Shown here piece after piece: positions 5,383 through 56,633 of a DNA stretch of 64,000 nucleotides; position 1 is the first letter of the stretch; each line of letters starts with the position of its first letter. The DNA comes from a virus. Under the pieces are notes generated by a model. That model was not told where the DNA came from. It saw only the letters and a program-made list of their open reading frames with translations, and searched no databases. Location: positions 72,877 through 136,876 of the IMG/VR virus record IMGVR_UViG_3300046744_000381. One strand, 5' to 3'. The position numbers and the translations under genes were made by a program.

Positions 5383-5401
5383 AATACTATCCTTATTGTA
5401 T

Positions 5402-8400
5402 TTATCGGGCGAGCTTATATGTGCTATCTGTTAGGAATCTGCTTATAGTGTTCTTACTGCTTGCAAGACTTATTCCGTCATCATTCCAAATTTTACCAGT
5501 TTTTCTAATTATTCTAATTTCAGTATCAGCAAGAGGTGCAGTAACTAATGTTAAAATATTATTTTCAACAGTAAATTCTGCTGGAACTACTACATCTCCT
5601 CCTGGACTATCTTGATCTAATGCTTCGTTGTACTGATAATAATTAGTATCAGCAGTAGAATTATTTGGATCAATTGGTGTAGCTTTTCTTAATCTTGTAC
5701 CAGCTACAAAAACATCAAATTCATTAACACTTGTTGGTGTCCAATTTAAATTAAATGTTTTTGCTGCACCATCACCTGTAAATAGTTGTGTATATGTAGT
5801 ATCTTGGTAAGGAATAGTCTCGCTTACACCTTGATGGAAAACTCTGCTATTAGCTGAATGCACATCTTTTACACCAGTTCCTAGTGTTCCTCTTCTTAAT
5901 TGTCTTAATACATTTCCTTGTTTTACAAAATATTCAATTCTTTCACCGTTTATAAAAATTATACCAGGAATTGCAAGCTCTTTATTAGGTTCATCTAAAC
6001 CATCTGAACTTTTTAAGTTAATACTTAGATCATACCAATTTAAATCAACTGCTAAATCATATTCCATTCCGCTGTTAATTCTCTTATAATGATATCTATT
6101 GAGAACGTCTTTGAATATTCTATATGCAAATTTCTGCTTACTTACATCAGCAGTAAAATATAATATTTCAATTCTATCATTTTTTATTGGGCGCTCACTT
6201 AAAATAATTGATTGTCTATTATCAGATAATGTATAATCTGCTTGCGAAGTTAAAAACTTGCCATTTAGAAATACCCAAGCATATTCAGGACCGGGTATTT
6301 TCTTGTCTAGTTTTATTTCACCTCTGCTAAGTAAGTTTCTTGTAAGATAATTAGCAGATCCTTCTGCTGCATTTGTATCCTCATATGAAACACGTAAACT
6401 TAGTCTTTCAAATTCATTTGTATCGTGATTTGAAAATACATAAATTTTTACATCTTGTGTAGGAATATCTTTTAAACTTAATCTTTCACTATCTACAACT
6501 CTGATACTATCAATTTTAAAATCAGTGCTATCGTCAAAGTATAACGACGGCGTATCGTCTTTAGCAGCAAGTGCTATTAGATCCCTAACATATCCTTGTA
6601 ACTTAATTGTAACTTCTTGTCCAGTCTTTGTATATTCCTGTACAGTACCAATTACATTAGTGCTATCATTGAGTGTAAAATTAATTTGATCTAATGGAGC
6701 GTAATCAACTAACGTGCCTGCATTGCTTAATTTAATTACTGTATCTACAAAAAAGTATTCTGCATTGTCTATTAAATATACTCTAAGTATATCTCCAGAT
6801 TTTCCAATTTCTCTGGTTGTAAATTCTATTCTGCCGTTTGTAGTACTGTATATATAATTTATAGGATCAACTAATTGATCATTTATATAAACTAAAATAT
6901 CTAATTGAGAAATTTTAGTTTGATCTAATAATTGCCAATTGTCTATTTCATATGCTCTATCAACTGTCATAGTGTGCTTTTTGACATATCCAGCATCTAA
7001 AAATTTATCGCCTACTTTAACTAGGATATTATGACTAATTGGTTTTTTGTTAAACGGCAGTGGTACTGCACCATTTGATCCAAAAGTGTGTGATCTTTGT
7101 GTAGATACAGTTCTATCAAACGTATCATCTATTGCAAGTTGACTGTATTGCTTTCCTGTACCTTTATAAAGAGTATATGTTATAATGCTATTAGCCGGTG
7201 GCACTTCACCAAATACAAGCATAACCTTATTTGCATTATCGCCATATTCAGGTCCTGATGCATCTAATCCAAAAGATGTACTTATGACTCCGTTAACACT
7301 TACTACTGCCGTTACGTTTTGTTCAAACTTATAAAACGTTACAAAGTTAGCAGTGTTACCGTCACCAGTAAACGTATCACTTTCTATTATGTTAGACCCA
7401 TTTGTACCAATTGTCAAGAAAGAAAGATGCTTTCCAACTGGTAATAAACTACTATCCGAAATCCTAAGTAGTTTTTCTGAATAATCTATTTCATACTGTG
7501 CAGGATCTAAAACAACATTATCTAATTTTACAATTACACTATCTTGTGTAGCTGGTAAATTTTCTAAATAGTATTCAGCACTGCCGCCATCTGTTCTAAA
7601 ATTTTGTACAGTAATTACGCCTTGTCCGTCATTTACACGCTCGTAAACTTGTAGATCTAGTGTATCTAAAATTTGTCCAGGTACTTGTTCTTCGGTACCT
7701 TTACTTGTTGTTGGACTTACAAAATCATCACCGTCAATTACAATATTGCCTGCGTCAATGCCTGTTGCTGTACTAAACTGTCCTGCAACATTTGTTAAAT
7801 CGCCGCCATTTATTTGTGTATCAAAGATTACGCCACTTGGTGTAACTGCACCATCGCTTGTTTCTTTTCTAACAATTATCGTATCGCCGTCTCTAGTTAC
7901 TAGTTGATCTTCATCTAGTATAAATGTGCTTGTTATTCCGTCACCTGTAATAGTCAACATTATTGAATCTTCTGGTGCTTCTGATGTTCCGTAAGCTTCA
8001 CTATCAATTCTTACAGGATTATCATTAATACCTGCTGTTGCAGCCTTATAATATACATTATATTTTACACCTGCTTCAAATGGCACACTAACAGTTATTG
8101 ATCCTGTACTACCATCAAGCACAAATACTTCATCTTCTAGGTTCCCACTAAATCTATCAAATGGTGTAGAACCAAATAAATCTCCGTTGTTAAAACCTTG
8201 TGATGCTCCAAAGCTTGCTGTATCAATTTGCACACCGCCATAGTCTACGCCATCCATAAGTTGAGATAATTCTTTACCAAACTGACCAGTTGTTGGATTA
8301 TAGTAAAAATTAATTCTATCTGATGCACTTAGATAATTCACATCTTTGTCGTATTCAATTACGATAGTTTTGTTATTTGATGGTGCATTTGCAAAACTCA

Positions 8401-11400
8401 CTACACCATAATATCTTGGATAGGTTACAGTTTTATCTAGTATATTACTAATACTGTAATCTGTTGCTAGTTGTTCAACTCCGTCTACTGTGACTGTAAT
8501 CTTAGAAGGCCTAACATCAATTGGCCATTTTAAGATAAAATCAATTTGTGATCCTGTACCTGTAAATGTTTGCGTAACATCCAAATCAGTAACAAAATAA
8601 CTTCCTGTAATCCTATCAAACTTTATTAACATATGTGTTGATCTAACCGGAGAATTGCCAATGATAGCAGTTGCTCTAGCTGGCTTGGCTGTACTATAAT
8701 CTTCTTGATCACCTTCAAATGTTAAAGTAGGAGCTGTTATATATTTTAAGTTTGCAAAATCAATTACAATACCTGTAACTTTGCCTTCGTTGATAGTGGT
8801 AGAACCAATTACTGTTGGGCCGCCGCCACCGCTCATAACTAATCTAGGTGCATTTGTCCAGCCAGTTCCGCCATCTGTCAATACAACTTCTTTTACTTCA
8901 AATCCTACATTGTCAAACCAATTTTTTTGAGGATAAGTTGTTACAAACTCACTGTAATTTCTAATTTGACTATCTAAGACTTGTGCAGTTTCTGATACAA
9001 TTTTTTCAGCATTTAAATCATATCGTGGAGGTAAATCAAAATCAGTTACGTTTGTTTGTGTAGGATCAATATTTTCATAAGCACTAACAAATTCTCTAAT
9101 TTTTGTGCTATAAGGTTTTACTTCATTTACATAGTCGTTGTAGCTTTCTAAACTATCACTCTTGTATGTTGTTTTTTGATCTAATCCACCTACGTTATGT
9201 TTTGCTTTTATAAATGCAGTTTTGAATATCCAATCTATGGTCGGTTGTTCAGCAAGTGCATATCTCACACTACTAAAGAAAAGTTTATTCCACTCTACTT
9301 TCAATTCGTCTACAAATATAGTTTGATTAATTGTGTTTAAAATTATTCTTACTTCTTCGCCTGCATCTCTGTCATACAATGCGCTATCGTAAACTGCTTT
9401 GTCGAATCCAAAACGTTCGTTGTTAAATAACAATCTACTAAATTCTATAGTTCCGTTTTGTCTTCCTATTGTTTCATAGTTTACAGTATAATCTACTTCT
9501 AATTGATTATCTATTTTTTTCAATAATAACCAACCACCAGAGCCAATAGTTTCTATTTTTATAATATCGCCTAAATTGTCTTTTAGCCCACCGAGAGCAT
9601 AACTTCCTGGTACTAAGTAATCAATATTTGTTTCTTTACTGTAGCCTTCTGCATACCAATCTATGTATTTCCAATAAAGGCTGGCATCATAACTTTGATT
9701 ATTAATACGTATCCATTCTTTTTCGGTTGAATTCCAGATATAAGTTGCCCAAAAACCTAACAATGTAGTATCAGTTGTAATTAATGCAGTAAATGGCCTT
9801 ACAGTAACAGTCGTAGTTGTTGAATTATAATTTTTACCTTCATTTATAATATTTGCTTCTATAACTTGACCAAGATTATTAATAACAGTTTCAATTTCAG
9901 CTCCTATGCCAGAACCTGTAATTGTAACTTTTGGACCTCTACGTTTAGTATCAGTTGCACTGTTAAATGCAGGATCAATATAGCCTCTACCTGCATTTGT
10001 AATAGTGACTTTTGTCAATCTGCCATCTACAATATCAACACTTAATTGTGCTTGGTCTAATTTAGATGTACCGATAAAACGTAACAATGTTTCATTCTCT
10101 ACAACAGTATCGTATTCTCTTGAGACATTAGTAGGTTGTGGATCTTTAGAAGATAGTCCACTTATATCAAATTCATCTACAATTAATTTTTTTGATAAAA
10201 CAAGATTTATTCTTTCGATAACTTGCTTTAATGCTTCTGTACGGTTTACAAACATTGTTTGTAAAGGATCATCCAAAATTCCATATCTTCTAGCCGGACT
10301 TAAAGTTGTTACAGGTAACAATGTTCTTTGTTTATCGTATCCTACTAAACTATCTATCCATTTACTTACAACTCTATCATTGGGCTGACTTGTAGCAAGA
10401 CCTTCTGTAAGAAGGTTGTATTCTCTATGTATATTATTAATTTTTACTTCTTCAGTATTATAATATTCAAAATGCAAAACAGTGTCAGTGTCTTTTACTA
10501 AATTTGTACAATTGTATATTGCAAAATTATTTCTTCCAAACATACCTAAGAATCTATATCCGTTAGCAGCAGGATCCTCAATTAACGATGCAACAGCATT
10601 AGCAGTAATAGTTCTGTTTGTAATTGTTGGTAAAACTTTTGAGTTTTTTACCCAATAGTAATATTTTGCCGAAAACAAACCAGTAATTGGATCGTAAACA
10701 TTTTTTCTTACATATCGTTGATTGCCGTATCTAGATACACCACTTACACCATCTGCTAAACCTTCTGTGGTATCTGCAATAGCGTCCCATTCGTCTGGTA
10801 ATAATGTTGAAGATACCCATTCATAGATATCAATACTGTAACCAGGTATAATTTTGTTCCAAACATTAGAACTATAATCAGCATTTTTTTGGTATGGATT
10901 ATACCATTTGACTGCATTCAAATCCCACAGCAACTCGCCAACACGTTCTTCGCCCCAAGGATTAACTACTCCGGTATTTGTATTACCAATATTATACACT
11001 GCTGGATCATAATAAAGTTTATAATTTATTTCTCTTTCAGCAGCATTAGCAATTTTACCTTGGATAGGATCTATCAAATCTATATATGTAATTAAATCAC
11101 TTGTTACACTATCGTATAAAAAGGCTCCACGCATTTTATCATAATTAATAAAATCTGTTGCTTCGCCAAGCGTGTTCCAGTTTGTAATATCTTTGTCGTG
11201 ACGTAAATCAAAAATTAAACCAAATTTACTATCACCTGTGTCTAATCCTTCAAATCCTAGATACAAGTGATTATTTTGATATAATATTTCTACATCATCG
11301 GCAGTTGACAAGTCTCTTTGTAATGTCAGGCCGTTGTCTATATAATATGATTCGTAATCAATAACTTCACTTACAGTGTAAATTTCATTCAAAAGTTCGT

Positions 11401-43468: not shown

Positions 43469-44560
43469 ATGTTAGATGCACTCAAAAATCTCTTCGAAAA
43501 TGACGCACTATCAGAAGAAGTACGTTCTGAATTAGAGGAAGCGTGGAACGCAAAAGTTAAAGAAAATCGACTTGAAGTTACTAGTGAACTACGCGAAGAA
43601 TTTGCTAAAAAGTATGAACACGATAAAACTACAATGGTAGAAGCCATTGATAGTCTTGTTACAGAAAAACTAGCAGAAGAAATCGCAGAATTCCAAGACG
43701 ATCGTAAACAACTAGCAGAAGCAAAAGCAAAATTTGCTGTTGCTCAGCGTAAAAATGCTAATCTAATGAAATCTTTTGTTTCTGAGCAACTTGCTACAGA
43801 AATTAAAGAACTGCACTCCGATCAAAAAGCAATGGCAGATAAATTTGTTGCTCTAGAAGAGTTTGTAGTAGAATCACTTGCGAAAGAACTTGCAGAATTT
43901 TACGAAGACAAAAAAGACTTGGCCGAAACAAAAGTACGTTTAGTACGTGAAGCCAAAGAACATCTTAGTAGCGTTAAGTCAACGTTTATTAAGAAAAGTG
44001 CAGCGTTGGTATCAGAAACAGTATCAAAGGGTCTCACAAAAGAGATTTCTTCACTGAAAGAAGATATTGAAGCAGCACGTGAAAATGATTTTGGACGTAA
44101 ATTATTCGAAGCATTTGCTAACGAATATCAACACTCATATCTTAACGAGAAGAGTGAAACTTCTAAACTACTAAGGGTTGTAGGTACTAAAGACCAACAG
44201 CTTGCAGAAGCAAAAGAAGCAGCGTCTAAAGCAATCAAACTTGCAGAAGCACAGGCAGCAGAGAACAAAAAGATCACTGAATCTGTGTCACGCAAAGAAA
44301 GTATTGATGGTTTAGTAGCTCCGTTGAGCATTGACCAGAAAGAAATAATGATGGACTTGTTAGAATCAGTTCAAACAGGAAAATTACAATCACAGTTTGA
44401 GAAATACTTACCGGCAGTTATCGACGGCAAGAGTCCAACGAAGAAGGCAGTTTTAGCAGAGGCAAAAGAAGTAACAGGCAACAGAACAGAAACAACTGAT
44501 ATAACAGCAAAGGCTGATAGCAACGTAGTTGATATCAAGCGTTTAGCTGGTTTGAATTAA
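43469..44560 (+). CDS. gp22: Prohead core scaffold (363 aa)
   Basis: E/K/A-rich coiled coil between the protease and the major capsid; FGRKLFEAF motif. Confidence 0.85.
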   Translation: MLDALKNLFENDALSEEVRSELEEAWNAKVKENRLEVTSELREEFAKKYEHDKTTMVEAIDSLVTEKLAEEIAEFQDDRKQLAEAKAKFAVAQRKNANLMKSFVSEQLATEIKELHSDQKAMADKFVALEEFVVESLAKELAEFYEDKKDLAETKVRLVREAKEHLSSVKSTFIKKSAALVSETVSKGLTKEISSLKEDIEAARENDFGRKLFEAFANEYQHSYLNEKSETSKLLRVVGTKDQQLAEAKEAASKAIKLAEAQAAENKKITESVSRKESIDGLVAPLSIDQKEIMMDLLESVQTGKLQSQFEKYLPAVIDGKSPTKKAVLAEAKEVTGNRTETTDITAKADSNVVDIKRLAGLN

Positions 44561-44570
44561 GGAGATAACA

Positions 44571-45740
44571 ATGTCAGAACTATTAGAAAGTCGCTGGCAA
44601 GAGACTAAAACAGCACTTCTTGAAGGCCTAAATGGCAATAAGAAAGCAGTTATGGCGTCAACACTTGAGAATACACGCAAGTATTTGGCTGAGACTGCAG
44701 GTGCTGGAGCTACCTCTGCCGGCAATATCGCAACACTTAACCGTGTGATCCTACCAGTGATCAGACGTGTTATGCCAACAGTGATTGCAAACGAAATCGT
44801 TGGTGTTCAGCCAATGACAGGTCCAGTGGGTCAAATCCACACATTGAGAGTACGTTACTCTGATACAGCAGGCTCAGGCGCAAGCGGAGCAACAGCTGGA
44901 GAAGAAGCACTTTCACCATTCAAAATTGCTGAAGCATATTCTGGTGCAACCAGTGGTAAAGCAGCAGCAACAGCAGCTCTAGAAGGTGCAGCTGGTAATA
45001 AACTTAGCATTCAGATCTTGAAACAGACTGTTGAAGCTAAATCACGTAAGTTATCAGCACGTTGGACATTTGAAGCGGCACAAGACGCTCAAAGCCAGCA
45101 CGGTATCGATGTAGAAGCAGAAATTATGGCAGCACTTGCTCAAGAAATTACTGCAGAAATCGATCAAGAGGTCCTAGGATCACTTGCTTCTTTAGCAGGA
45201 ACAGGTACAGACACTTATAACCAAGCAGCAGTATCTGGTACAGCTACATTTGTTGGCGACGAACACGCAGCTTTAGCAGTTCTAGTTAACAGAGCAGCAA
45301 ACAGAATTGCACAGAGAACACGTAGAGGCGCAGGTAACTGGGCTGTTGTTTCTCCAGCAATTTTGACTGTACTTCAGTCAGCAACAACTTCAGCGTTCGC
45401 AAGAACAACTGAAGGTACTTTTGAAGCACCAACAAATACTAAAATGGTTGGTACTTTGAACGGTGCAATGAAAATCTACGTAAACACATATGCAGCAGAT
45501 GATGATGTATTAGTTGGATACAAAGGTTCTTCAGAATCAGACGCAGCAGCGTTCTACTGCCCATACATTCCGTTAATGAGTAGTGGCGTTGTACTTGACC
45601 CAACATCATTTGAGCCAGTCGTATCATTTATGACTCGTTATGGATATGTTGAGTTGTCAAACACAGCTTCGTCTCTTGGTAACGCAGCTGACTACGTAGA
45701 GAAAGTTGAAGTGAACACAGGTAACTTGAGTTTCTCATAA
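44571..45740 (+). CDS. gp23: Major capsid protein (389 aa)
   Basis: RRVMPTVIANEIVGVQPMTGPVGQI, VEAKSRKLSARWTFEAAQD, EITAEIDQE, FYCPYIPL and MTRYG. Confidence 0.97.
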   Translation: MSELLESRWQETKTALLEGLNGNKKAVMASTLENTRKYLAETAGAGATSAGNIATLNRVILPVIRRVMPTVIANEIVGVQPMTGPVGQIHTLRVRYSDTAGSGASGATAGEEALSPFKIAEAYSGATSGKAAATAALEGAAGNKLSIQILKQTVEAKSRKLSARWTFEAAQDAQSQHGIDVEAEIMAALAQEITAEIDQEVLGSLASLAGTGTDTYNQAAVSGTATFVGDEHAALAVLVNRAANRIAQRTRRGAGNWAVVSPAILTVLQSATTSAFARTTEGTFEAPTNTKMVGTLNGAMKIYVNTYAADDDVLVGYKGSSESDAAAFYCPYIPLMSSGVVLDPTSFEPVVSFMTRYGYVELSNTASSLGNAADYVEKVEVNTGNLSFS

Positions 45741-45759
45741 GCTAAACTTTACAAGTTCA

Positions 45760-45785
45760 AAATAGGCCCTACGGGGCCTATTTTT
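45760..45785 (+). terminator. Rho-independent terminator after gp23
   Basis: AAATAGGCCC-TACG-GGGCCTATTT followed by a T run; cUACGg tetraloop. Confidence 0.9.
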
Positions 45786-45814
45786 ATGAGTAAATACCCA
45801 CAAGGAGTAATATA

Positions 45815-46009
45815 ATGATATACAAAGGTCAGGTTTATAAGTTTACAGGTAAATGGGGTGTTGTACGTCCAGATGCATTTGGTCAAGTACGTGTTGACGT
45901 ACTGTTTGATAAAAATCAACATAAACTAATTATTGGTGATCGTGTTGAATATGAACAAATTGAAAAAAATAATAGAAGATATGCAGAAAATATTGTAAAA
46001 ATAGGTTGA
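45815..46009 (+). CDS. Cold-shock-domain (OB-fold)-like protein (64 aa)
   Basis: KGQVYKF...WGVV...DVLF...LIIGDRVEY...YAENI parallels the CSD pattern GxVKWF...FGFI...DVFVH...LxEGxxVxF...AxNV; AAGGAG SD and TAAATA at 45791-96. Confidence 0.65.
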   Translation: MIYKGQVYKFTGKWGVVRPDAFGQVRVDVLFDKNQHKLIIGDRVEYEQIEKNNRRYAENIVKIG

Positions 46010-46033
46010 CTTTTATTTTGTATATGCTATATT
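46006..46033 (+). promoter_or_regulatory. sigma70-like (extended -10) promoter with no downstream ORF
   Basis: TTGACT (46006-11), 16-nt spacer, TATATT (46028-33) preceded by TG at 46025-26. Confidence 0.65.
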
Positions 46034-46039
46034 AAGTAC

Positions 46040-46283
46040 ATAACAAAGACGACGGTCCTAGTTAGATAGTGCAAGGAAGAGAGATAGCAGGTCTCAAACT
46101 TGGCTAGTAGTTGTAGTGACAGCGTATGAGCGTGGAGACACGAAGATGCGACTTTAAACGTAACTGTTTGATACTAGGCTCTTGGTGATTTAGCAGAACA
46201 GACTGCAAAGCCGGGTTGTTGGTATTCTGAAGTCCAACCTATCAACATTATAGAAAAAGGTCTACTTCGGTGGGCCTTTTTTT
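46040..46283 (+). ncRNA. Candidate stand-alone structured small RNA (~240 nt)
   Basis: Bounded by its own promoter and terminator with no ORF in the track; multiple helices including CGTG-GAGA-CACG, and crossing pairings CCTAGT/ACTAGG and GATAG/CTATC. Confidence 0.65.
46254..46283 (+). terminator. Rho-independent terminator
   Basis: AAAAAGGTCTAC-TTCG-GTGGGCC followed by T7; cUUCGg tetraloop. Confidence 0.9.
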
Positions 46284-46315
46284 ACGAACATTATAACCCA
46301 TTTTTTCGAAAAGGA

Positions 46316-46415
46316 TAAATACTATTGTCAGATAGTATGCCGCAAGGCGGACTTATGCTGTACCCGCAGCGTAGCTCATAGAACGGGCATCGGACTTCTA
46401 AACAGGAGAAAACAA
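46316..46415 (+). promoter_or_regulatory. Late promoter plus structured 5' leader (GCAA hairpin and possible pseudoknot)
   Basis: TAAATA at 46316-21; TGCC-GCAA-GGCG; ATGCTG/CAGCGT stem whose loop CCCG is complementary to CGGG at 46384-87; AGGAG SD. Confidence 0.5.
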
Positions 46416-46766
46416 ATGGGAAGACCTATTAATAAAAGAAACTTTGGCGCTACTGGAGCCACCACACCAACAATACCAGTTAGATATCACAACGGATCAT
46501 CAAGTGTAGAAGGTTACATTGTGAATCAAAAAGGTACAAACAAATTTACAGTAACAACTAACGGTTCTGATACATTCGTATGCAGACTTGTTAATGAAGT
46601 TGCTCCAAATGCAGCAGCAGAAATGTCATTAGTTGGCTTAGCAGGCAGTCCTGTTATTCTGAAGAAACTATTCAACAGAACAGCAGTTGATTGGGACGGT
46701 AACCGTTATACTTGGACTACTGAGGACGACTCTACCGAATCATTGTTAAGACTGACAGCCATTTAA
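46416..46766 (+). CDS. Virion structural protein, putative decoration/appendage anchor (116 aa)
   Basis: MGRPINKRNFG...GYIVNQKGTNKF; first gene of the late operon after gp23; strong SD. Confidence 0.55.
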   Translation: MGRPINKRNFGATGATTPTIPVRYHNGSSSVEGYIVNQKGTNKFTVTTNGSDTFVCRLVNEVAPNAAAEMSLVGLAGSPVILKKLFNRTAVDWDGNRYTWTTEDDSTESLLRLTAI

Positions 46767-46777
46767 GGAGTTTCTAA

Positions 46778-47797
46778 ATGGCTCAACGTATCAATAGAAT
46801 CGGCGCAGATTCTTATGTAATCAAAGTAGATAATGGCGGAAGCATTGAATTAGATGTAGGACCAGCAGGTGCTGTCACAGTAACCGGTGATCTTGCAGTT
46901 CAAGGTGAAAGCACATCTATTGGATCTAGTGATCTTGTAGTTGAAGATAATACTATTACTGTCAACGCAGGTGAAACAGGCAGCGGAGTTACATTAAACA
47001 CAGCCGGTTTAATTGTTGAGCGTGGAATCGCAAATGATGCTTACTTCTTCTGGGACGAAAGAGTACAAAGTATTAGTGGCGGAATAGCTCGTCAAGGTAG
47101 TTGGATATTACAAGACTCAACTAATGCTATTAACGGATTAGTTGCATCTAGTATTAGACCAGATACTATAGGAAGTAACAATTTAACTTTACTAGCTGAA
47201 GGTACAGGTATTGTTACAGTTACAGGTACCACTGATTACGAAAAGCAAGTGTATGACTACACAGGCGATGACATTACTACTAATGCCAGTAATCCAACAA
47301 AATTAGTTTTACCAAACGACGATGACGCATTAGTATCGGCTAGATTACTTGAAGACTTTGTAAGAGGATACACAACACAAAACTTACAAACAGGTATTTC
47401 AAAAGGCGATACTACACCTACTAGTGTAAAAACTTTTGACTTTGAAGTTGATTCATCAACAAGTAGAATTGAATTTAAAATCGATGACAATTTGTTAGCA
47501 ACAATGTTTGAGAATCGCTTAGAAATTGGCAATATTAAAATTACTGCTAATTCTATTACATCTAGCGATGTTAATGGCGATGTTGTTCTTGCAGGAGCAG
47601 GTACTGGCGGTGTTAGATTAGATACTGCTACTACTATCAAAAAATTAGCAGACCCAGTTGTACCAACTGATGGAGTTTCGTTATATAGTAAACCATTAGC
47701 AGATGGAGGAACAGGTATATTTTTTGTAAATGAAGATACAACTCAAGACGAACTAGCAAGTCGGAACAAAGCACTACTTTTCAGTATAATATTTTAA
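46778..47797 (+). CDS. Virion fibre-like structural protein (339 aa)
   Basis: VTGDLAVQG...VEDNTITVNAGE...AGLIVERG...FFWDE is a trimeric fibre-type segment also present in 780..2753. Confidence 0.55.
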   Translation: MAQRINRIGADSYVIKVDNGGSIELDVGPAGAVTVTGDLAVQGESTSIGSSDLVVEDNTITVNAGETGSGVTLNTAGLIVERGIANDAYFFWDERVQSISGGIARQGSWILQDSTNAINGLVASSIRPDTIGSNNLTLLAEGTGIVTVTGTTDYEKQVYDYTGDDITTNASNPTKLVLPNDDDALVSARLLEDFVRGYTTQNLQTGISKGDTTPTSVKTFDFEVDSSTSRIEFKIDDNLLATMFENRLEIGNIKITANSITSSDVNGDVVLAGAGTGGVRLDTATTIKKLADPVVPTDGVSLYSKPLADGGTGIFFVNEDTTQDELASRNKALLFSIIF

Positions 47798-47807
47798 AGG
47801 AACAGAA

Positions 47808-48140
47808 ATGGCAATAGTAAACGCACAAATAGCAAGCACAGATACAATATTAATTACTGTCCCAGCAGCTAAGAAATATGCTATAACTACAGTTCTAGTG
47901 TGTAACAACCAGTTTGATGACTCTAGTGGTGCAAATGATACAACATTTGATATGCACGTTATACCAGCTGGTCAAAGTAAAACACTTAGAAATTTAGTTT
48001 TAAATGACTTAAAAGTTGCAGCGGCAGATACATTTACATTTAATGTAGAAAGATTGATTTTAGAGGCAGATGACAGATTAGTGTTTGTAGGTGCTAACCC
48101 ACAAAATTTAAGTGTTACAGTAAGTTATTTGGAAGTATAA
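47808..48140 (+). CDS. Small beta-sandwich virion protein (110 aa)
   Basis: ITVPA...TTVLVCN...LILEADDRL...VTVSYLEV; coupled to the 2830-aa gene. Confidence 0.5.
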   Translation: MAIVNAQIASTDTILITVPAAKKYAITTVLVCNNQFDDSSGANDTTFDMHVIPAGQSKTLRNLVLNDLKVAAADTFTFNVERLILEADDRLVFVGANPQNLSVTVSYLEV

Positions 48141-51100
48141 ATGGATTATTTTAAGAGACAGTCGTTACATAGCAGGTTAATAGGAGACACTAGTGTAACA
48201 TTAACAGCAGATGGCGAAGTCTTAATCGAACCAAGCGGTCGCAAGGTTACGATTGACGGCGACTTAGTTGTTACAGGAAACGCAAGCGGTTCTGAAGTTA
48301 CTGACATACTTTATGTTACCCAAGACGGTAATGATTTAAATGACGGTAAAAGTTTAGGACCAGACGGAGCGAAAGCAACAATTAAAAGTGCTGTCGCTTC
48401 ATCAAGCCCGGGTACTACAATTCTTGTAGGACCAGGAGATTTCTATGAATCAAATCCAATAACTCTACCAGATTTTGTTACTATTAGAGGTACTGGTGAT
48501 TTAAGAAATACTAGAATTTTCCCAAGAAATAATACGCAAACTATTTTCTATATGGGAAATGGTTGTTACTTACACGAACTTACTATGAGAGGGTTAAGAT
48601 ATCCAGGATGGTGTGCTGAAATACGAGAAGGCGCACTTGTAACAACATCACCATATATACAAAACTGTACAAATATGAATGGTCCTTGGTTGAATGACGG
48701 CACAGAATTTATTCCATTCGAAACAGTGCAGATACCAGGAATTGAACCTGGTGCTAAACCATTAATGGTTGAAGATTATCCTGCTTTACCTTCTGGCAAA
48801 CAAGTTAATGACACAGGCGGCGGTGGCGGCCTATATGTTGACGGTAATCAATATGATCCTGCATCACTTGTGTTTAGTTTTGTTGCAGATGCATTTACAC
48901 AAATTGCACAAGGCGGAGTTGGCTTTTGGATTGATAATTTTGGTTACACACAAATTGTTAGTTGTTTCTCAGTATTCTGTAGTGTTGGTTTTAAAACCAC
49001 ACGAGGCGGCTATCTATCTATTTCAAACTCTGTAAGTGACTTTGGATTAAAAGGTATTGAAGCAGACGGATTCTATCCACAAGCATATACAACTGCCAGA
49101 CCACAGCAAGATTATTTTAGTACTGTTGCAAGTGTTACAATTAATACACCTGGTGCAAATTATACTTCTGCTCCTACTGTTGTAATAGAAGGACCATCAA
49201 AAGTTGGAGGCGTAACAGCGACTGCCACTGCATCAATAGACACTACTTCAGGAAAACTAGCTGCTGTTACAATACAACAAGCAGGTAGCGGTTATACTAG
49301 TGTCCCTTTAATTTCATTTAGTGGAGGCGGAGCAACTGCTCAAGCCACAGGCACAATTAATCTTGCCTCTAATGTCACAGTAACCCTAAACAGTTTAAGA
49401 GACAAACCACAAACAGGTAGTATAATTAAATTTGAAGGTGACCCTCTTTATTATTATATTACTGGAACTAATCAAATTAATCCACCTTTTGTTTATGATG
49501 AGGTAGTATGTAGAAGAGATTTACGTAGGATTATTGACGCTGTCACTGCTGATATTGTTTTAGGCACAAGTTATCAATCACAAGCAGCAGCAACAAGTTA
49601 CTTGAGAGCAACATCAAGTAAAGTATTATCAGATCAATTGGCACCAACTGTTTTTGGTATTGAATCGGCTAGAGACGGAATGAAGGCCGAAACTACTAAT
49701 CTAGCAATGGAAGAGCAAATTGATTATTTGTTTAACATAATTACAAGCACAATTAATGAAGGGGACAGTAGTGTACAGCCCGATAATCAAAATGATATTG
49801 CTAATACACTAAACGATCTGAATACTATCGACCCTGCAAGAATTGCTGCAAAAAATAATGTTTTAGAAAATAGAGAGTTTATAGTAGAAGAAGTTGCAGC
49901 ATATGTTAATGATCAGTTTACTGAACTAAGTTATAACCAAGCTGATTATACTAGTGATATGACAACACTTATTAATGGTATTCAAATGTTTGCAGCGTTA
50001 GAAAGTAACCAGCAAATTATTAGACTTGCTCAAGAATACGAAGTACGCACTAGATTCAAACCAATGTTGTTGTCTAGTTTTAGATTCCTAAGCGAAAAAT
50101 TTGAAGCACTAGCCGAAGTACAAGCAAGTACAATTGCATTAACAAATGTTAAAGAAGGCTTCAACCAGTTTATGAATATTATTGATGATGGTGATAGTTC
50201 GGCAAATGTAATTGTATTTCCTGAACACGCAGGAGTTGATAGCAATAGAGCAGATGCTAAAGATCAATTACAAGCAAACAAAAACTTTTTGACAACAGAA
50301 TTTACAACTTTTCTAGCAGCAGAAGCTCCAGGATTTAGTTTTGATGTGGATAATTACAAATTAGATTTTGAAAGAATAATCGATGCTATGACCTTTGACG
50401 TCCTGTACAACGGTAATAGTAGTACAGTTTTAGAAGCTAGATATTATTTTGATAATGGTGCAGACGGAACTTTATTTTCAGATTTAACACCTAATGATAG
50501 AAATGCTATCGTACAATCATATGCACGTATGAGATTTGTAATAGGTAGAGTAGCTAGAGGTTTAGCTGTAACAGCTACAACCGGTAATGGCGTTAGTCAA
50601 GATTTTACAAGCAACAATGCAACACAGAGTGAAGCTGATTTTCTAGATACATTATTGTTTAACATTGAAGATATGATAGATAATGTAACACTAGATAGAT
50701 TGCCTTCAACTTTAACATATCCAACATACGGGGACGAACCTGCGTTACAGGTAGATGCTGCAAATATTATTGAAGCTAGACGTAACGGTTTTATTACTGA
50801 TGCTATATCATATAATTTAGCAAATAATCCAACACTTACATACAATCAAGATAAATGTAAAAGAGATATCGGTTACTTGGTTGATGGAATTAATCGTGAC
50901 ATACTATTAGGTACTAATCATAATAGTATACAGGCAGCTACAGCATATAAACGTGCAAATGTTGCATATCTAAATTCAGAACAAAAACCAGCTACAATTC
51001 TTTCATTAAAATATGCAAAAACATTAGGAATAGCAGCAGTTACAACTAATGATTTAATCAGAGACGATGTTTCAGCAAAATGGGATATAATTCTTGATAT

Positions 51101-54100
51101 TATAGAATTTGATCAATTACCTAGTGTAGGTATTGAATACCCGGATCCTGGTCCTGCAAGTAATGAACTAATTTATGGAGTTGATCAAGTTCTTGCAAAT
51201 AAAGCATTTTTACAAGAAGAAACTGTACAATTTATTAACAATCAATATTTTGTATACAATAGTGCTAAGTGTGAAAGAGATACCGGACTTATTATTGATG
51301 CAGCAGCATATGACACATTGCTTGGTACAAACTACAATGCAGTTACAGCAGGATTATCATATCAAAGAGCAAACAGTGCATATGTTTTAAGTGATCAAAA
51401 TACAGAAACAATCGGCGGTATTAATTTTGCAAAAAGTAGATCCAGTGATGCAACAACACATTCGCCCTCGCAATCAGATGTTGAAGCAGCATTTGACGAA
51501 GTAATTGATATTATACAAAACGGTGCAGTAAGCACACCGCAGGCTGCTGATCCACTTACATTTACAGATCCATCAACTGCATCAACAGCCGAAATAAACA
51601 CAAAATCTCAATTACAAAATAATAGAAATTTTATTGCTGCTGAAACAGTTGCTTACATAAATGAGAATTACGTTAATTTTACATATGACAGTTCAAAATG
51701 TGAAAGAGATATTGGATTAATATTAGATGCAATATCAAAAGATGTTGCACTAGGAACAAACTATAATACTGTAACAGCAGGATTAGCCTACTCAAGAGCC
51801 ACCGCTGCAACTAACAAAGCAGCACAAGGTTTACAAACACTCGAATCATTTAAGTTTGCACGTAAAGAAACAATCGAAAAAGGATTAAGTGATACTGGAG
51901 AAGCAAGGGCATTAGCATCGTGGAATGAAGTTATAGATATATTTGAAAATGGCGTTGTTAGTACAGATACCGCAGCCGATGCTATAACATTTACTACTCC
52001 GGTTGGTGCAAGCCAAGATCTAGAAGATGCAAAAGATCAATTACAAGCAAATAGAGATTTTATTGCAGCTGAGATTGTTGCATATGTAAATGATAACACA
52101 CCGCCGGCAGGTTATAATCAAACTAAATGCAATCGTGATGTAAAATATATTGTAGATGGTTTATCACACGATATACTTTATGGTGGTAACTCAGCAACTA
52201 GACTAGTAGCAGCTAGTTATTTTGAAGGTGCAGTAGCACAACTTCCTGTAAACCAGCTAACACCAACTACTAATGCCTATACACACTTAAAAGATACTGT
52301 GATTCCAGCAATTATCACAAATACTCCACTAACACCTACAACTGGCAACACTGAAACTCAAGACACCACAAACGGTGCAGCAACCGCAACAGAAAGTGCA
52401 GCACTTGAATTATTGGTAGATATTATTATTGATCACATAAATGGCTACGATAATGTTAATCCGTTAGGTGACGAAGTATTACCAAGTGTTACTTGGTCTA
52501 CATCAGAACTGCAACAAGATTACAGCACTATTGTTGCACAGAAGTCAAGTATACAAAGTTTGACAACACAGTTTATTGCAGACACTTTTACTGGATTCAA
52601 CTTTAATAGCACAAAATGCGATAGAGATACAAAGTATATTGTTGATGCATTAACATATGATATATTATACGGTGGCAATAGTGCTACGCTTAATGCTGCA
52701 CGTAGCTATTGGGTAGGTACACAAACACAAGTTGAAGGACAAAAAGCAGAAACTGCAACAGCGTTAGAATATACAGCAACTATATTAAATAAAATTATAC
52801 AAGATCAAGCAGTTGATTATACTTGGCAATCAAGTGAAGCACAAGATACAACTGCTGGTGCAGGAACTACAACAGAAGCAGCAACCGCAGCTAACTTGTT
52901 GCAAATTATACAAGATGTTATAACTGACGGTCTAGATAATTTGCCTACAGAAGTCAAGCCAGATTATGCAACATTTGCAAATGCAGATGTGATTGCTGGA
53001 GTTAATAATTTATTAACAGAAAAAGATACTATTGTAGCAGATACAATTACCTATATTAACACAACTTATAATGGATTTAGCTATGATCAAGAAGTATGTA
53101 AAAGAGACACAGGCTATATTATTGATGCTATTGTACACGATGCTTTCTACGAAGCAAACATTAGCACACTAATAGCAACTCGTGCATACTTCCTAGGTAG
53201 TACACAATACTTGCCAAATGAACAAGTTGCTCCTACAGTAGCAGCATACAACCATTTACAAAGTGTAATTGATGATACTATTCAAGGTGTAGCAGTTATT
53301 CCACAGTCAGGAAATAGTCTATCACAAGTATTGAGCGGCAATTACGGAAATGCAGCAGTAGGAACAACATTTACAAATTTGATTGGTATATTAAAAACAG
53401 CAATAACTAATCAAACTTTAATTGGAACACCGGCTGAAATTGAACCTAATTATACCTGGATTAACCAAGCAACTAGAGACGCAGCAGAATCATTTTTTGT
53501 ACAAAAATCGTATTATGAAACAGAAACAATCAAATACATTGAACAAAATATTTTAGGATTCTCATATAATATTGATAAGTGTAAAAGAGATACAGGTTAT
53601 ATTATTGATGCAGCAATATACGATATGATGTATGGTGGTGATAAACAATCTCGTCGAGCAGCATTAGCATATTATAATGGTGCGATACTTACTGGTATAA
53701 CAGGCGATTATGGAGATCAAACGGGTATCACAGCATATGCAAATAAGTATCTTGCTTCAATTGTAAACAAAGTTTCAAAAAATGAAACAGTTACAAAAAG
53801 TTTTGGTAACCCAGCAACACAACTACTAACCATACCAGATGGAAGTACATTATTAGAAACTGGTGAACTTCCTGGAGCCGAACTAGAATTATTAATTGCT
53901 AGGGTTGCTGATGCAATTGAAGCAAAAACAATGGGCGATTGGTTTGAAAGAGAGCACAATTTAACATTAGGTAATTCAATATTTTTACAAGAACGAAATG
54001 CAATACTTGATGCTGAAGACGATATTGTTGATAATGCCATTAGTTCATTAAACTTAGTATACGGTGGTATTTTTGATATCAACGTATTCCCTGGTGTTAT

Positions 54101-56633
54101 TAGTGTAACCACAGATAAACTTGCAGATTTAAATAATGTTAGTACTGTTAGTACAAGTGGACACGCATTTGAGTATGTCGGTGCTGGTATAACCTACAAT
54201 GCACTTCCATTCTTTGGCGGTACAGCAATACCTGAAACTGAGATTGTAGAATCAAATCAAGGTAAAATATTTGCTGGTGGTACAGTTGACCAAATTGGTA
54301 ACTTTAGAGTTGGTAACTTCTTTGCTGTTAATGCACTTACAGGTGGTATCAGCTTAAATGCTAATGAAATTGACCTAGAAGGTTTGACAAGTGTTGGTCC
54401 GTTTATTAGAAACGGTATTCCAGTTGGTGTTGAATTAAAAGAGGTTAGTGACAACGAAGCATTGTTATCAAGTTTAGGCACACAAGATTTCCAAACAGCA
54501 CCTACACAAAGAGCTGTTTCAAATTATGTTGAAGCAAGATACTTGAACAAAACAACAGGCGGTGATATTGTTGGCGATGTAAGTATGACAGGAGACTTAG
54601 CAGTCAACGGTGATGCAATTACAAGTACAAATACAAGTTTTGAATTCCTTAATACAGGTGTACAAAGCATAGATATGTTAGCTGCGGCAACCACTATTAA
54701 TATTGGTGCTGCAACAGGTACTGTTACAATTAATCCAGATGTTACAATAGAAGGTGTTCTAACTGTTAACGGAAACTTAGTATTTGACGGTGATGTTAAT
54801 ATTAGTATACCAGATGAAACATTACAAGCATATAGTATTACTGAAGGCACTGAAGATTATATAAGCATCAATACTAGAGAAGGTGAAGAAGCAATTACAT
54901 TTGGTGAGCAGCCAAGTGTTATTATTGCCAACCAAACAATATCAACAAGCAAAGACACTGGTGCATTAGTTGTAGACGGCGGTGTTGGTGTTGAAGGCAG
55001 TGTGTTTATAAACACTGATTTAACTGTTACTGCAAACGCAAACCTAGGTGCAGATAGAACTACATCCGAACATACTGTTTCAGGTAAAATAGATATCGAT
55101 ATTCCAGATGATAGTATTAATAATTTTAGAATACACGAAAACATCAGTGAATATGTAAACATCTATACTACAGATGGTGATGAACAAATTCTTTTAGGTA
55201 GTACACCTAAATTAATTATTCTAAACAACACAAACGCTACAGATAACACAACTGGTGCTGTACAAGTCACTGGTGGTATAAGTGCTCAACAAAATATACA
55301 TTCGGGTATTGACGTTGTAGCAGATCGTGATTTGATTGCTGATAGAAATGCTAAAATTAACGGTAGTAATATCACAACCGATTCTACCTCATTTGATGTA
55401 ATAAACACAGTAGCAACAACTGTAAATGCGTTTGGTGATGCTACTACACTTAACATAGGTGGTGCTACTGGCACAATGACAATTGGCAATGAAGTTGTTA
55501 TTATAGATAGTGTAGCAGGTTTACAGATTCCGGTAGGTACTACTTCCGATCGTCCAACTAATGTTACAGGTAGAATCAGATTTAACACTAGTTTAAATGC
55601 ATTTGAAGGTTATGATGGTATAGCTTGGAATACTTTAGGCGGAGTAATTGATGTAGATCAAGATACGAAAATTGTTGCCGAAGATAATCCTGGTGCAGAC
55701 AATGACGAACTAGACTTCTTTACTGGAGGTGTACTTAGAGCTACATTGAGCAGTACATCTTTTGATATTGCAGCAACAAACACTTTAAGTATCGCAAATG
55801 TTACAGAAAGCGAATCAACAACAACAGGTGCATTAACAGTAGCAGGTGGTGTAGGCATTAGTAAAAACTTGCACGTAAATGGATACATTAACGGCAACAC
55901 AAATGGTATACTAACAATTGGTAACTTAGGTAGTGATAAAATCATTATCAAAGGCGAAACAATCGAAACACCTGATACTATAAAACTTATTGCTAATGCT
56001 CCTGACAGTGCAGCTGACGACATTGTATATCCGATGACATTTGCACATCATACAATAAGTGGTGCTATTGTTGCAGGGTCTGGTACAGGTATTAAGTTTG
56101 AATTAGAAACAACAAATGACAATTTTGAAATCGGCGGCCAAATTGAAATAGTATCTCAAGACATTACAGGGTCACAAGAAGACTTTGATATGGTGTTTAG
56201 AACAATGGATGCTGGTAGTACAGGTGTAGAAAAACTACGTTTGAGTGAAACTACAAGTACATTTAGTACAAACGTTCAAGTTGATCAAAACTTATTTGTA
56301 ACTGGTATACTTGATGCAGCAGGATTTAGAGGTAGTATATTTGCAGATGATAGTACCGAAATGCTTGATGCAATTAACAACAAAATTACTGTAACTGATA
56401 TAGCTGCTGGTACACTTTCACTTACTACTGATTTAGAAGTTATACACGGTGGTACAGGCGTAAGTACACTTACCGAAGATGGTATTATGTATGGTGCAGG
56501 AACAGGAACAGTGCAAGTTACAGCAGCAGCTGGTACAGCAGATGCTTCAGAAACATTCCAAGTACTTACTGTAACAAGCGATTCAGATGCGACTCCAATT
56601 TGGTCTGACACTATAGATGGTGGTAGCTTCTAA
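48141..56633 (+). CDS. Giant virion fibre/appendage protein: beta-helix, 10 phycobiliprotein-like (globin-fold) repeats and a fibre shaft (2830 aa)
   Basis: YVxxDGNDxNDG...KATIKSA start; SPYIQN/DAFTQ/QIVSCF beta-helix motifs; repeats of Yxxx(K)CxRDxxxIxDAxxxDxxxGxN; TGALxVxGGVG shaft repeats; C-terminal IDGGSF. Confidence 0.75.
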   Translation: MDYFKRQSLHSRLIGDTSVTLTADGEVLIEPSGRKVTIDGDLVVTGNASGSEVTDILYVTQDGNDLNDGKSLGPDGAKATIKSAVASSSPGTTILVGPGDFYESNPITLPDFVTIRGTGDLRNTRIFPRNNTQTIFYMGNGCYLHELTMRGLRYPGWCAEIREGALVTTSPYIQNCTNMNGPWLNDGTEFIPFETVQIPGIEPGAKPLMVEDYPALPSGKQVNDTGGGGGLYVDGNQYDPASLVFSFVADAFTQIAQGGVGFWIDNFGYTQIVSCFSVFCSVGFKTTRGGYLSISNSVSDFGLKGIEADGFYPQAYTTARPQQDYFSTVASVTINTPGANYTSAPTVVIEGPSKVGGVTATATASIDTTSGKLAAVTIQQAGSGYTSVPLISFSGGGATAQATGTINLASNVTVTLNSLRDKPQTGSIIKFEGDPLYYYITGTNQINPPFVYDEVVCRRDLRRIIDAVTADIVLGTSYQSQAAATSYLRATSSKVLSDQLAPTVFGIESARDGMKAETTNLAMEEQIDYLFNIITSTINEGDSSVQPDNQNDIANTLNDLNTIDPARIAAKNNVLENREFIVEEVAAYVNDQFTELSYNQADYTSDMTTLINGIQMFAALESNQQIIRLAQEYEVRTRFKPMLLSSFRFLSEKFEALAEVQASTIALTNVKEGFNQFMNIIDDGDSSANVIVFPEHAGVDSNRADAKDQLQANKNFLTTEFTTFLAAEAPGFSFDVDNYKLDFERIIDAMTFDVLYNGNSSTVLEARYYFDNGADGTLFSDLTPNDRNAIVQSYARMRFVIGRVARGLAVTATTGNGVSQDFTSNNATQSEADFLDTLLFNIEDMIDNVTLDRLPSTLTYPTYGDEPALQVDAANIIEARRNGFITDAISYNLANNPTLTYNQDKCKRDIGYLVDGINRDILLGTNHNSIQAATAYKRANVAYLNSEQKPATILSLKYAKTLGIAAVTTNDLIRDDVSAKWDIILDIIEFDQLPSVGIEYPDPGPASNELIYGVDQVLANKAFLQEETVQFINNQYFVYNSAKCERDTGLIIDAAAYDTLLGTNYNAVTAGLSYQRANSAYVLSDQNTETIGGINFAKSRSSDATTHSPSQSDVEAAFDEVIDIIQNGAVSTPQAADPLTFTDPSTASTAEINTKSQLQNNRNFIAAETVAYINENYVNFTYDSSKCERDIGLILDAISKDVALGTNYNTVTAGLAYSRATAATNKAAQGLQTLESFKFARKETIEKGLSDTGEARALASWNEVIDIFENGVVSTDTAADAITFTTPVGASQDLEDAKDQLQANRDFIAAEIVAYVNDNTPPAGYNQTKCNRDVKYIVDGLSHDILYGGNSATRLVAASYFEGAVAQLPVNQLTPTTNAYTHLKDTVIPAIITNTPLTPTTGNTETQDTTNGAATATESAALELLVDIIIDHINGYDNVNPLGDEVLPSVTWSTSELQQDYSTIVAQKSSIQSLTTQFIADTFTGFNFNSTKCDRDTKYIVDALTYDILYGGNSATLNAARSYWVGTQTQVEGQKAETATALEYTATILNKIIQDQAVDYTWQSSEAQDTTAGAGTTTEAATAANLLQIIQDVITDGLDNLPTEVKPDYATFANADVIAGVNNLLTEKDTIVADTITYINTTYNGFSYDQEVCKRDTGYIIDAIVHDAFYEANISTLIATRAYFLGSTQYLPNEQVAPTVAAYNHLQSVIDDTIQGVAVIPQSGNSLSQVLSGNYGNAAVGTTFTNLIGILKTAITNQTLIGTPAEIEPNYTWINQATRDAAESFFVQKSYYETETIKYIEQNILGFSYNIDKCKRDTGYIIDAAIYDMMYGGDKQSRRAALAYYNGAILTGITGDYGDQTGITAYANKYLASIVNKVSKNETVTKSFGNPATQLLTIPDGSTLLETGELPGAELELLIARVADAIEAKTMGDWFEREHNLTLGNSIFLQERNAILDAEDDIVDNAISSLNLVYGGIFDINVFPGVISVTTDKLADLNNVSTVSTSGHAFEYVGAGITYNALPFFGGTAIPETEIVESNQGKIFAGGTVDQIGNFRVGNFFAVNALTGGISLNANEIDLEGLTSVGPFIRNGIPVGVELKEVSDNEALLSSLGTQDFQTAPTQRAVSNYVEARYLNKTTGGDIVGDVSMTGDLAVNGDAITSTNTSFEFLNTGVQSIDMLAAATTINIGAATGTVTINPDVTIEGVLTVNGNLVFDGDVNISIPDETLQAYSITEGTEDYISINTREGEEAITFGEQPSVIIANQTISTSKDTGALVVDGGVGVEGSVFINTDLTVTANANLGADRTTSEHTVSGKIDIDIPDDSINNFRIHENISEYVNIYTTDGDEQILLGSTPKLIILNNTNATDNTTGAVQVTGGISAQQNIHSGIDVVADRDLIADRNAKINGSNITTDSTSFDVINTVATTVNAFGDATTLNIGGATGTMTIGNEVVIIDSVAGLQIPVGTTSDRPTNVTGRIRFNTSLNAFEGYDGIAWNTLGGVIDVDQDTKIVAEDNPGADNDELDFFTGGVLRATLSSTSFDIAATNTLSIANVTESESTTTGALTVAGGVGISKNLHVNGYINGNTNGILTIGNLGSDKIIIKGETIETPDTIKLIANAPDSAADDIVYPMTFAHHTISGAIVAGSGTGIKFELETTNDNFEIGGQIEIVSQDITGSQEDFDMVFRTMDAGSTGVEKLRLSETTSTFSTNVQVDQNLFVTGILDAAGFRGSIFADDSTEMLDAINNKITVTDIAAGTLSLTTDLEVIHGGTGVSTLTEDGIMYGAGTGTVQVTAAAGTADASETFQVLTVTSDSDATPIWSDTIDGGSF

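Follow-up and report, generated by a model that had tools for sequence, protein, structure and literature searches.

manA RNAs have been riboswitch candidates since 2010, when they were proposed as such from their place in 5' untranslated regions (UTRs) (Weinberg 2010, PMC2864571). In a recent cryo-electron microscopy (cryo-EM) preprint, manA RNAs are reported to assemble in vitro into decamers built from pentamers and into a 60-mer T=1 icosahedral cage, one assembly type using L5-L7' and L8-L9' kissing loops and another using L6-P6' GNRA-receptor, L5-L7' and L3-L8' contacts; the same text still calls manA a putative 5'-UTR element (bioRxiv 10.64898/2026.07.01.735769). According to the available description, GOLLD and ROOL are phage or prophage RNAs lying near tRNA islands and forming closed homo-oligomeric RNA-only nanocages (Kretsch 2025, PMC12286853). 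Here we describe an RNA locus in a stretch of 64,000 nucleotides of viral DNA (IMG/VR record IMGVR_UViG_3300046744_000381, positions 72,877 to 136,876), hereafter called the window. Comparative analysis indicates that this locus carries a diverged manA RNA, placed between a promoter and a terminator of its own:

46043..46250, + strand: manA-family RNA, found with Rfam RF01745 and with the subfamily models R1 and R2

Specifically, positions 46045-46248 align to all 192 positions of RF01745, with 29.7 bits and an E-value of 1.1e-5 in a region search run with an E-value threshold, and with an E-value of 4.4e-7 against the whole 136,876-bp virus record, while none of 14 control genomes (0/14) was matched. 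This score is well under the Rfam gathering score of 55.2 bits, the operational cut-off for manA, and a scan of the window at gathering scores reports freshwater-2 (46336-46418) as the sole RNA. Related viral loci, here given L numbers, were gathered via the 116-aa protein encoded downstream (43 loci) and via the 64-aa protein encoded upstream (5 loci). A search with nhmmer detected the RNA at the corresponding place in 13 of them, and the fuller blastn matches are 72-76% identical. When the 13 loci were scanned with Rfam, full-length manA was found in 11, at 33.9-60.4 bits, three being above 55.2 bits (L046 60.4, L045 60.1 and L017 55.5 bits); four further loci also exceed the cut-off (L078 64.7, L127 64.0, L135 61.9 and L061 57.9 bits).

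Model R1, built after the Rfam alignment had been mapped onto the window and this mapping checked on four close relatives, finds the RNA in 20 of 49 sources. Model R2 was built from the window's subfamily alone; the window RNA scores 218 bits with R1 and 189 bits with R2. A pattern scan of viral contigs listed 80 of at least 117 loci, and R2 confirmed 24 of the 80; after R2 the subfamily comprises, among the matches listed, 42 hits corresponding to 34 distinct RNAs. R2 in turn recognises the manA of 11/11 cyanophage loci (30.8-59.9 bits, E<=7e-12), P-SSM2 manA scoring 51.1 bits with R2 and 181.6 bits with the Rfam model. A blastn search of 45700-46500 against 50,697 phage records gave no match, and manA was not found in Vibrio phage 2.275.O, PA5oct, Syn9 or S-PM2. 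A tRNA or tmRNA identity of the window RNA was rejected after a scan. All together, the full-length match, the homologues over the cut-off and the reciprocity of R2 indicate that the window RNA is a diverged manA missed by the Rfam cut-off, a membership that rests on transitive and reciprocal homology and not on the gathering score. A preliminary description of this DNA, made from its letters, had presented the RNA as one of no recognised class; the Rfam search and homologue collection that it proposed led to manA, to the 34 distinct subfamily RNAs and to a strong covariation signal.

According to the manA alignment, the window RNA is organised in nine helices:

46045-50/55-60, + strand: P1
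46065-69/46239-43, + strand: P2, the nested closing helix (GATAG/CTATC)
46072-75/46099-102 and 46081-85/91-95, + strand: P3
46104-09/46172-77, + strand: P4
46110-13/20-23, + strand: P5
46124-27/46-49 and 46131-34/39-42, + strand: P6, with a GAGA loop
46155-58/67-70, + strand: P7
46181-86/46210-15 and 46193-96/46203-06, + strand: P8
46218-22/34-38, + strand: P9

On the R1 alignment of 15 distinct sequences, 91.9% of the cells are paired and 42 of the 56 pairs have changed on both sides; with 35 sequences, P-SSM2 included, 93.6% of the cells are paired and 50/56 pairs are compensatory. The pairing level of the 35 sequences was reached by none of 500 shuffles, and slid controls gave 36-43%. The manA consensus structure (5' hairpin, closing helix, P3, three-hairpin junction under P4, P8 and P9) is kept by covariation. 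P4 is a good example, being paired in 100% of the cells with compensatory changes at 6/6 pairs (CUAGUA/UACUAG, CUCACA/UGUGAG, CAAGUU/AACUUG). RNAalifold recovered only 25 pairs on an unguided MAFFT alignment, because the variable arms were misaligned, and model-guided alignments were used in its place. Chance structure, also considered, was ruled out by the covariation of the homologues in both alignments. In addition, the + strand folds with a minimum free energy (MFE) z-score of -2.26 against shuffles, compared to 0.05 for the - strand.

The complementary segments listed in the preliminary description all exist, and CAAG/CTTG, GAGAT/GTCTC, CGTG-GAGA-CACG, CTTGGT/GCCGGG, GCAG/CTGC and GTTGG/CCAAC correspond to six manA helices. 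GATAG/CTATC is also a helix, the nested P2, and not the pseudoknot arm it had been taken for. The crossing partner of that arm, CCTAGT 46057-62/ACTAGG 46173-78, is 68.3% paired against a shuffle mean of 67.1%, a level equalled by 150 of 500 shuffles, and its 3' strand pairs instead with 46104-09 in P4. For TAGTTGT/GTAACTG the pairing is 63%, against 55% and 53% after sliding by 3 columns, and this segment pair shows the L5-L7 loop contact in a wrong register. The covariation check suggested at the time, run on 15 and 35 sequences, thus gave a strong signal for the manA helices, while the pseudoknot as drawn, whose crossing pairing is without covariation support, was not confirmed.

The non-nested contacts that do find support are both loop-loop, namely L5-L7 and the covarying L8-L9, and involve four short loops:

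46114..46117, + strand: L5 loop UAGU, complementary to L7
46163..46166, + strand: L7 loop ACUG, complementary to L5
46199..46202, + strand: L8 loop CAGA, complementary to L9
46226..46229, + strand: L9 loop UCUG, complementary to L8

Positions 4-7 of L9 show seven distinct tetrads in the window's clade. An exact reverse complement of the L9 tetrad is present in the P8 apex of the same sequence in 12 of 15 cases, against 10 of 180 for foreign tetrads; the three misses are a G-U wobble (L123, L094) or a one-base shift (L083). L8 NNGA and L9 UCNN covary as CAGA/UCUG, AGGA/UCCU, GAGA/UCUC, AUGA/UCAU and CUGA/UCAG. The L5-L7 pair, whose support is weaker, reads UAGU with ACUA or ACUG in the window's clade and UGGU/ACCA in L004, L068, L017 and all cyanophage manA. 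In a second clade (L002, L006, L023, L045-47, L010, L037 and others) we found L3 UACCA, L8 UGGUA and L6 GAAA. These results were obtained with fixed-column loops and the tetrad test, which replaced a per-arm automatic refolding that shrank the loops and gave noisy statistics; when G-U pairs were allowed, the L8-L9 matrix became uninformative. Judging from the GNRA sequence of L6 and from the agreement of the loop pairs, the helix numbering used here appears to match the P/L numbering of the preprint. A contact labelled 'pseudoknot?' is also part of the manA figure of Weinberg 2010.

The window RNA is enclosed by two transcription signals, the second of which was delimited on the MFE fold:

46006..46033, + strand: sigma-70-type promoter with TTGACT -35, 16-nt spacer and extended -10 TGC-TATATT, predicted start near 46040
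46254..46283, + strand: intrinsic terminator formed by an A-run, the hairpin GGTCTAC-TTCG-GTGGGCC at 46259-46276 and T7 at 46277-83

In a consensus scan the promoter has 10/12 consensus matches in addition to the upstream TG, and TTGAC followed by an extended -10 (TGnTAnnnT) has this site as its single match on the + strand of the 64-kb window. The terminator hairpin has 7 bp, is G+C-rich, carries a UUCG loop and is flanked by A5 and T7, with an A/U extension from 46254; a packaged terminator scan listed 0 sites in 44000-48500 despite this plain hairpin and T7, and our own detector was used. According to the list of open reading frames (ORFs), there is no + strand ORF of >=25 aa between promoter and terminator, where the sole ORF is one of 34 aa on the minus strand, nor was any + strand ORF of this size found from the stop of the 64-aa ORF (46009) to the ATG of the 116-aa gene (46416). 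A small conserved ORF was considered as an explanation and rejected, as none lies on the + strand and the substitutions are compensatory for an RNA. The host-type promoter, the UUCG terminator and the ORF-free unit recognised in the preliminary description were therefore all found to be present, the last on the + strand. The terminator is flanked by two copies of the 9-mer AACATTATA, at 46244-46252 and 46287-46295, and ATTATA-like repeats flank the manA terminator in relatives too; the duplicates of AACATTATA may be a trace of cassette or terminator insertion.

The same arrangement was observed in the relatives. In 19/19 full-length loci of the first set, TTGAC-N17-TGnTATAnT lies just upstream and a hairpin with a U tract just downstream of the RNA. 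Over the 34 distinct subfamily RNAs, TTGAY-N15-19-TRnnnT is found just upstream of 31, and a terminator-like hairpin with a U tract lies <=66 nt from the 3' end of 23, compared to 15 of 189 control windows, under a relaxed detection rule run with this control (the strict rule gave 19/34).

The genes and elements on either side of the unit are the following:

45762..45786, + strand: terminator of the major capsid gene gp23, ATAGGCCC-TACG-GGGCCTAT followed by a T run
45815..46009, + strand: 64-aa ORF from the ORF list, weakly CSD/OB-like, a variable neighbour outside the RNA unit
46314..46321, + strand: late-promoter-like box GATAAATA, serving the downstream 116-aa gene
46336..46418, + strand: freshwater-2 RNA (RF02980), comprising leader, Shine-Dalgarno site and ATG of the 116-aa gene
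46416..46766, + strand: 116-aa gene from the ORF list, given as context

The box GATAAATA resembles the T4 late-promoter consensus, TATAAATA. Related loci keep it as (T/G)ATAAATAC whether or not they have manA, and the window has only 5 copies of the motif, compared to 25.9 on average in shuffles. Freshwater-2 scores 68.1 bits, over a cut-off of 49.9 bits, and was found at E<0.1 in 13/13 related loci scanned. Since leader and box are kept with and without manA, freshwater-2 seems to be a leader of late genes in these phages; it is not mentioned in the main text of Weinberg 2017, as far as accessible. The 116-aa protein matched no Pfam family. Further downstream, after small late genes, lies an ORF of 2830 aa at 48141-56633.

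By comparing the loci, we found no manA in 27 of the 43 with the 116-aa gene; there, box and leader come immediately after the gp23 terminator or after another ORF. In L044, the gp23 terminator is followed by TTGAC and then by what appears to be the manA terminator reduced to its 3' arm and U tract, about 90-50 nt upstream of the freshwater-2 leader, which looks like a clean cassette deletion scar. Because the 116-aa gene has its own box and freshwater-2 leader and lacks manA in so many loci, manA is here an optional, inserted stand-alone cassette, unneeded by the downstream gene. The locus comparison also agrees with the earlier proposal of a compact structured RNA gene inserted into the late region, with gp23 upstream and a gene with a late-type promoter downstream.

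The capsid gene (Pfam Gp23, E 1e-99) is followed by the same hairpin in related loci, and lies upstream of manA on the same strand in 23/34 distinct subfamily loci; the distance is at most about 1.1 kb in 22 of these and 1.85 kb in the other, L016. In 4/11 cyanophage records (L175 metaG-MbCM1, L177 S-SSM5, L180 P-HM1, L181 P-RSM4) manA begins 58-66 nt after gp23, so that the gp23-manA adjacency recurs in cyanophages and in jumbo-phage loci. The slot behind gp23 (window 45741-46415; L007-L044, L051) is hypervariable among relatives, being empty or containing the 64-aa CSD-like ORF, the manA cassette, other small ORFs or, in PA5oct, a Hef-like homing endonuclease.

Other copies lie among RNA genes. 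manA is found 14 nt after tRNA-Met inside a 17-tRNA array (68-5888) in L135, 4 nt before tRNA-Gly (105-179) in L088 and 12 nt after a permuted (alpha-type) tmRNA gene (8395-8720) in L078; these placements are contexts typical of RNA genes and we count them in favour of a stand-alone unit. In L081 a tmRNA lies about 2.3 kb from manA. Upstream of manA and on the same strand, a glutamine riboswitch aptamer (RF01739) was detected in L010 (1585-1637) and in L061 (2812-2861, minus), at 50.9 and 58 bits, so that a further structured RNA occupies this slot. Our literature search brought up no description of manA in a promoter-terminator cassette or beside tRNA or tmRNA genes, although supplementary context tables may exist.

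The 64-aa protein matches Pfam CSD (PF00313, cold-shock domain) with 17.3 bits and E 0.0045, short of the gathering cut-off of 27 bits, and RsgA_N, an OB-fold family, also below threshold. Ten of its 11 homologues match CSD at E<=1 and none at the cut-off, and its atlas feature hits (0.90) are clusters with CSD in 25-37% of members. PHROGs offered no family for this protein, and weak or functionless families alone for its neighbours; a profile search of the PDB with the 64-aa family gave nothing below E 0.25. The gene reported immediately upstream of the RNA is thus present, while its assignment as CSD/OB-fold remains weak and sub-threshold. Moreover, it adjoins manA in 11/34 distinct loci and occurs without manA in L007-L009, and because of this the CSD-like gene is not an obligate manA partner, contrary to the link between protein and RNA suggested earlier.

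We consider it rather likely that manA in this locus is a self-contained unit giving rise to a free, self-associating RNA that acts in trans, and not a cis-acting leader or riboswitch. The near-consensus host sigma-70-type promoter would start an RNA of about 245 nt near 46040, and the intrinsic terminator would end it unconditionally. The transcript is predicted to fold into the nine-helix manA architecture and to expose L5 UAGU/L7 ACUG and L8 CAGA/L9 UCUG as loop pairs for self-association. The RNA would be abundant, made early in infection and active in trans. This model is favoured because a stand-alone unit is combined with those loop pairs that join other manA RNAs in the cryo-EM work, as far as it is described. 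Oligomerisation of the window type in vivo may be expected by analogy, while action in trans, a discrete transcript and its early timing are what we infer from the layout of the locus.

Several observations, beside the low Rfam score of the window RNA, weigh against this interpretation. The alignments were fitted to the model structure, a bias in favour of that structure, although we regard the covariation signal as real because the slid controls are low and many changes are two-sided. L5-L7 is modest in the fixed-column test, with 76.5% paired compared to 74.3% after sliding by -3, and is mismatched in L123, L094, L088 and L072. Covariation is also blind to whether loop contacts are intra- or intermolecular, and the correspondence of our helix numbers with those of the preprint was drawn from its description alone. 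As for context, four of the 34 RNAs (L078, L093, L127, L135) lack a terminator and are immediately followed by a Shine-Dalgarno site and ATG, three further subfamily RNAs lie about 70 nt before an ORF, and P-SSM2 manA ends 16 nt before one. With respect to expression, the stretch is present in 14 DNA runs and parts of it in four RNA-library runs; two oligo-dT libraries of one study hold identical contigs over 45820-46380 at depth 2-4, one of which bridges the terminator, and these may represent DNA carry-over or read-through. The metatranscriptome contigs of X16 and X18 cover gp23 and 46341-46704, with none over 45797-46304, although contigs cannot show absence.

The main competing explanation, a transcription-attenuating riboswitch, takes manA as a metabolite-binding domain and the 46254-83 hairpin as its expression platform. 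Under control of this switch, early transcripts begun at the 46006 promoter would either end at the hairpin or continue into the freshwater-2 leader and the 116-aa gene. The 5'-UTR proposal of 2010, the four RNAs set directly before a ribosome-binding site and the position of P-SSM2 manA all speak for it, and so does the layout itself, since transcriptional switches, too, usually have an intrinsic terminator 5-10 nt behind a complex and conserved fold of the aptamer type; in P-SSM7, by eye, a short hairpin with U8 abuts the manA 3' tail before the ORF. However, the terminator overlaps no manA helix, and neither a pairing exclusive between aptamer and terminator nor a cognate antiterminator pairing was found, the 5' arms of the terminators pairing with their own manA no better than with foreign ones (-0.776 cognate vs -0.771 kcal/mol/nt non-cognate). 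For 21 of the 23 full transcripts, the predicted probability of the terminator hairpin is about 1. The downstream gene, with its own promoter-like box and leader, is independent, and manA also lies in tRNA and tmRNA arrays. The 'Cis-reg' label of Rfam, which places the RNA in the 5' UTR of a regulated gene, does not describe the window, where a terminator follows the RNA; it is a contextual and not a structural annotation. In the accessible parts of Weinberg 2010, of the S-CREM1 paper and of the 2026 preprint, manA is described only as a putative cis-regulatory element or candidate riboswitch, and a ligand is not given. Because no competing pairing was found and the downstream gene does not depend on manA, we hold the riboswitch to be unlikely.

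It is less probable still that manA is a structured 3' UTR of the upstream late messages, stabilising or localising the mRNA of the 64-aa gene. Late transcripts of this gene would then run through manA to the 46254-83 terminator, and read-through into manA is indeed expected wherever the gene is present, because no terminator separates its stop (46009) from the RNA; in addition, manA lies close behind gp23 in many loci. Against this, 31/34 RNAs have a conserved promoter of their own, the 64-aa gene is missing from 23/34 distinct manA loci, gp23 has its own terminator before manA, and the nine conserved helices and covarying loops are left unexplained. The proposal of the preliminary description, a novel pseudoknotted ribozyme-like or decoy RNA bound or silenced by a late CSD-like protein, now seems to us very improbable. 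CSD proteins bind RNA, and the 64-aa protein does give weak CSD-like signals; among the distinct loci gathered via the 116-aa protein, its gene is adjacent in 5/11 with manA compared to 1/14 without, a count made by eye and phylogenetically confounded. Yet the RNA is manA and not a new class, the crossing pairing is unsupported, a neighbouring CSD-like protein is absent from 23/34 manA loci, and L007-L009 have the protein without manA. No ribozyme family was matched, either in the window at gathering scores or in 45700-46500 at E<=10, and no pointers to self-cleavage were seen in this analysis.

If the stand-alone unit is compared to canonical manA (RF01745; P-SSM2, S-SSM5, P-HM1), the nine-helix architecture, aligned over model positions 1-192, the conserved P9 region, the GNRA L6 and the complementarity of L5-L7 and L8-L9 are common to both. 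Canonical cyanophage copies also have the same sigma-70-like promoter type just upstream (pattern in 10/11) and the same favoured site right after gp23. As in the window, a terminator follows the RNA in S-SSM5 and P-HM1, the only 2 of 11 cyanophage records in which one was detected, and several cyanophage manA lie close to an ORF start; in contrast, the window's subfamily is mostly terminated and not in a 5' UTR. Other differences concern the P2-P3 junction, GUGCAAGGAA in the window and GUGACUGAAUAA in the consensus, and P2, GAUAG/CUAUC instead of GGGAG/CUCCC. L8 and L9 vary and covary in the window's subfamily, whereas the 11 cyanophage copies are invariant in L8 CUGU and L9 ACAG, as well as in L5 GGUGGUG and L7 ACCA.

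In cyanophages (L055 1440-1500 and others), the -35 box of the manA promoter, TTGACACCC, lies inside a GAGGGTG...CACCCTC hairpin with a T run, an element that looks like both upstream terminator and manA promoter. Annotated 'hypothetical protein' coding sequences overlap manA in L174 (658-832), L177 (605-811), L179 (641-814) and L180 (551-727), the phages concerned being P-HM2, S-SSM5, P-SSM4 and P-HM1; these are probably spurious gene calls. The carrier also differs, as its capsid protein is nearest to Vibrio, Sinorhizobium and Pseudomonas jumbo phages (65-70% identity) and not to cyanophages, the closest being Vibrio phage 2.275.O (69.9%), Sinorhizobium phage Phosso, Erwinia jumbo phages and the PA5oct group. 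The virus record has 137 kb and is rated 38% complete. From these relationships, the carrier is presumably a marine, probably jumbo, T4-like myovirus.

With GOLLD and ROOL, manA shares a phage origin, the lack of a known protein partner and of an assigned function, and a position in or beside tRNA or tmRNA genes in 3/34 distinct loci; a 60-mer cage in vitro has been described, in the text accessible, for other RNAs of the family. At about 205 nt, compared to roughly 580 nt to over 800 nt, manA is much shorter, its sequence and fold are unrelated and its oligomer symmetry differs, and most copies described here lie behind gp23 and not in tRNA arrays. Homology to GOLLD or ROOL was found neither with gathering scores over the whole window nor with E<=10 over 45700-46500. 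The relationship is a functional analogy only, not membership.

In conclusion, this locus holds a real, well-supported structured RNA gene of a known family, whose novelty lies in its divergence and in its genomic packaging. What is new is a diverged manA subfamily missed by the Rfam cut-off, in marine, probably jumbo, phages, mostly set in a promoter-RNA-terminator cassette that comes and goes among relatives and sometimes embedded in tRNA or tmRNA arrays. Such a cassette fits the recent evidence, as far as described, that manA RNAs build RNA-only particles, and the loops forming the reported cryo-EM interfaces covary in nature, so that natural compensatory variants of the L8-L9 interface are at hand. 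The packaging also makes the choice between a free assembling RNA and a leader riboswitch directly testable with a short, well-defined construct. More tentatively, manA may prove to be no riboswitch but a third class of phage-encoded self-assembling RNA particle beside GOLLD and ROOL, made as a free early small RNA from its own cassette or from tRNA/tmRNA arrays, with kissing loops selected for assembly in infected cells. On this reading, its recurrent site as the first unit after the capsid gene, in cyanomyoviruses and in jumbo phages, could point to a role in head production or in host-factor sequestration.

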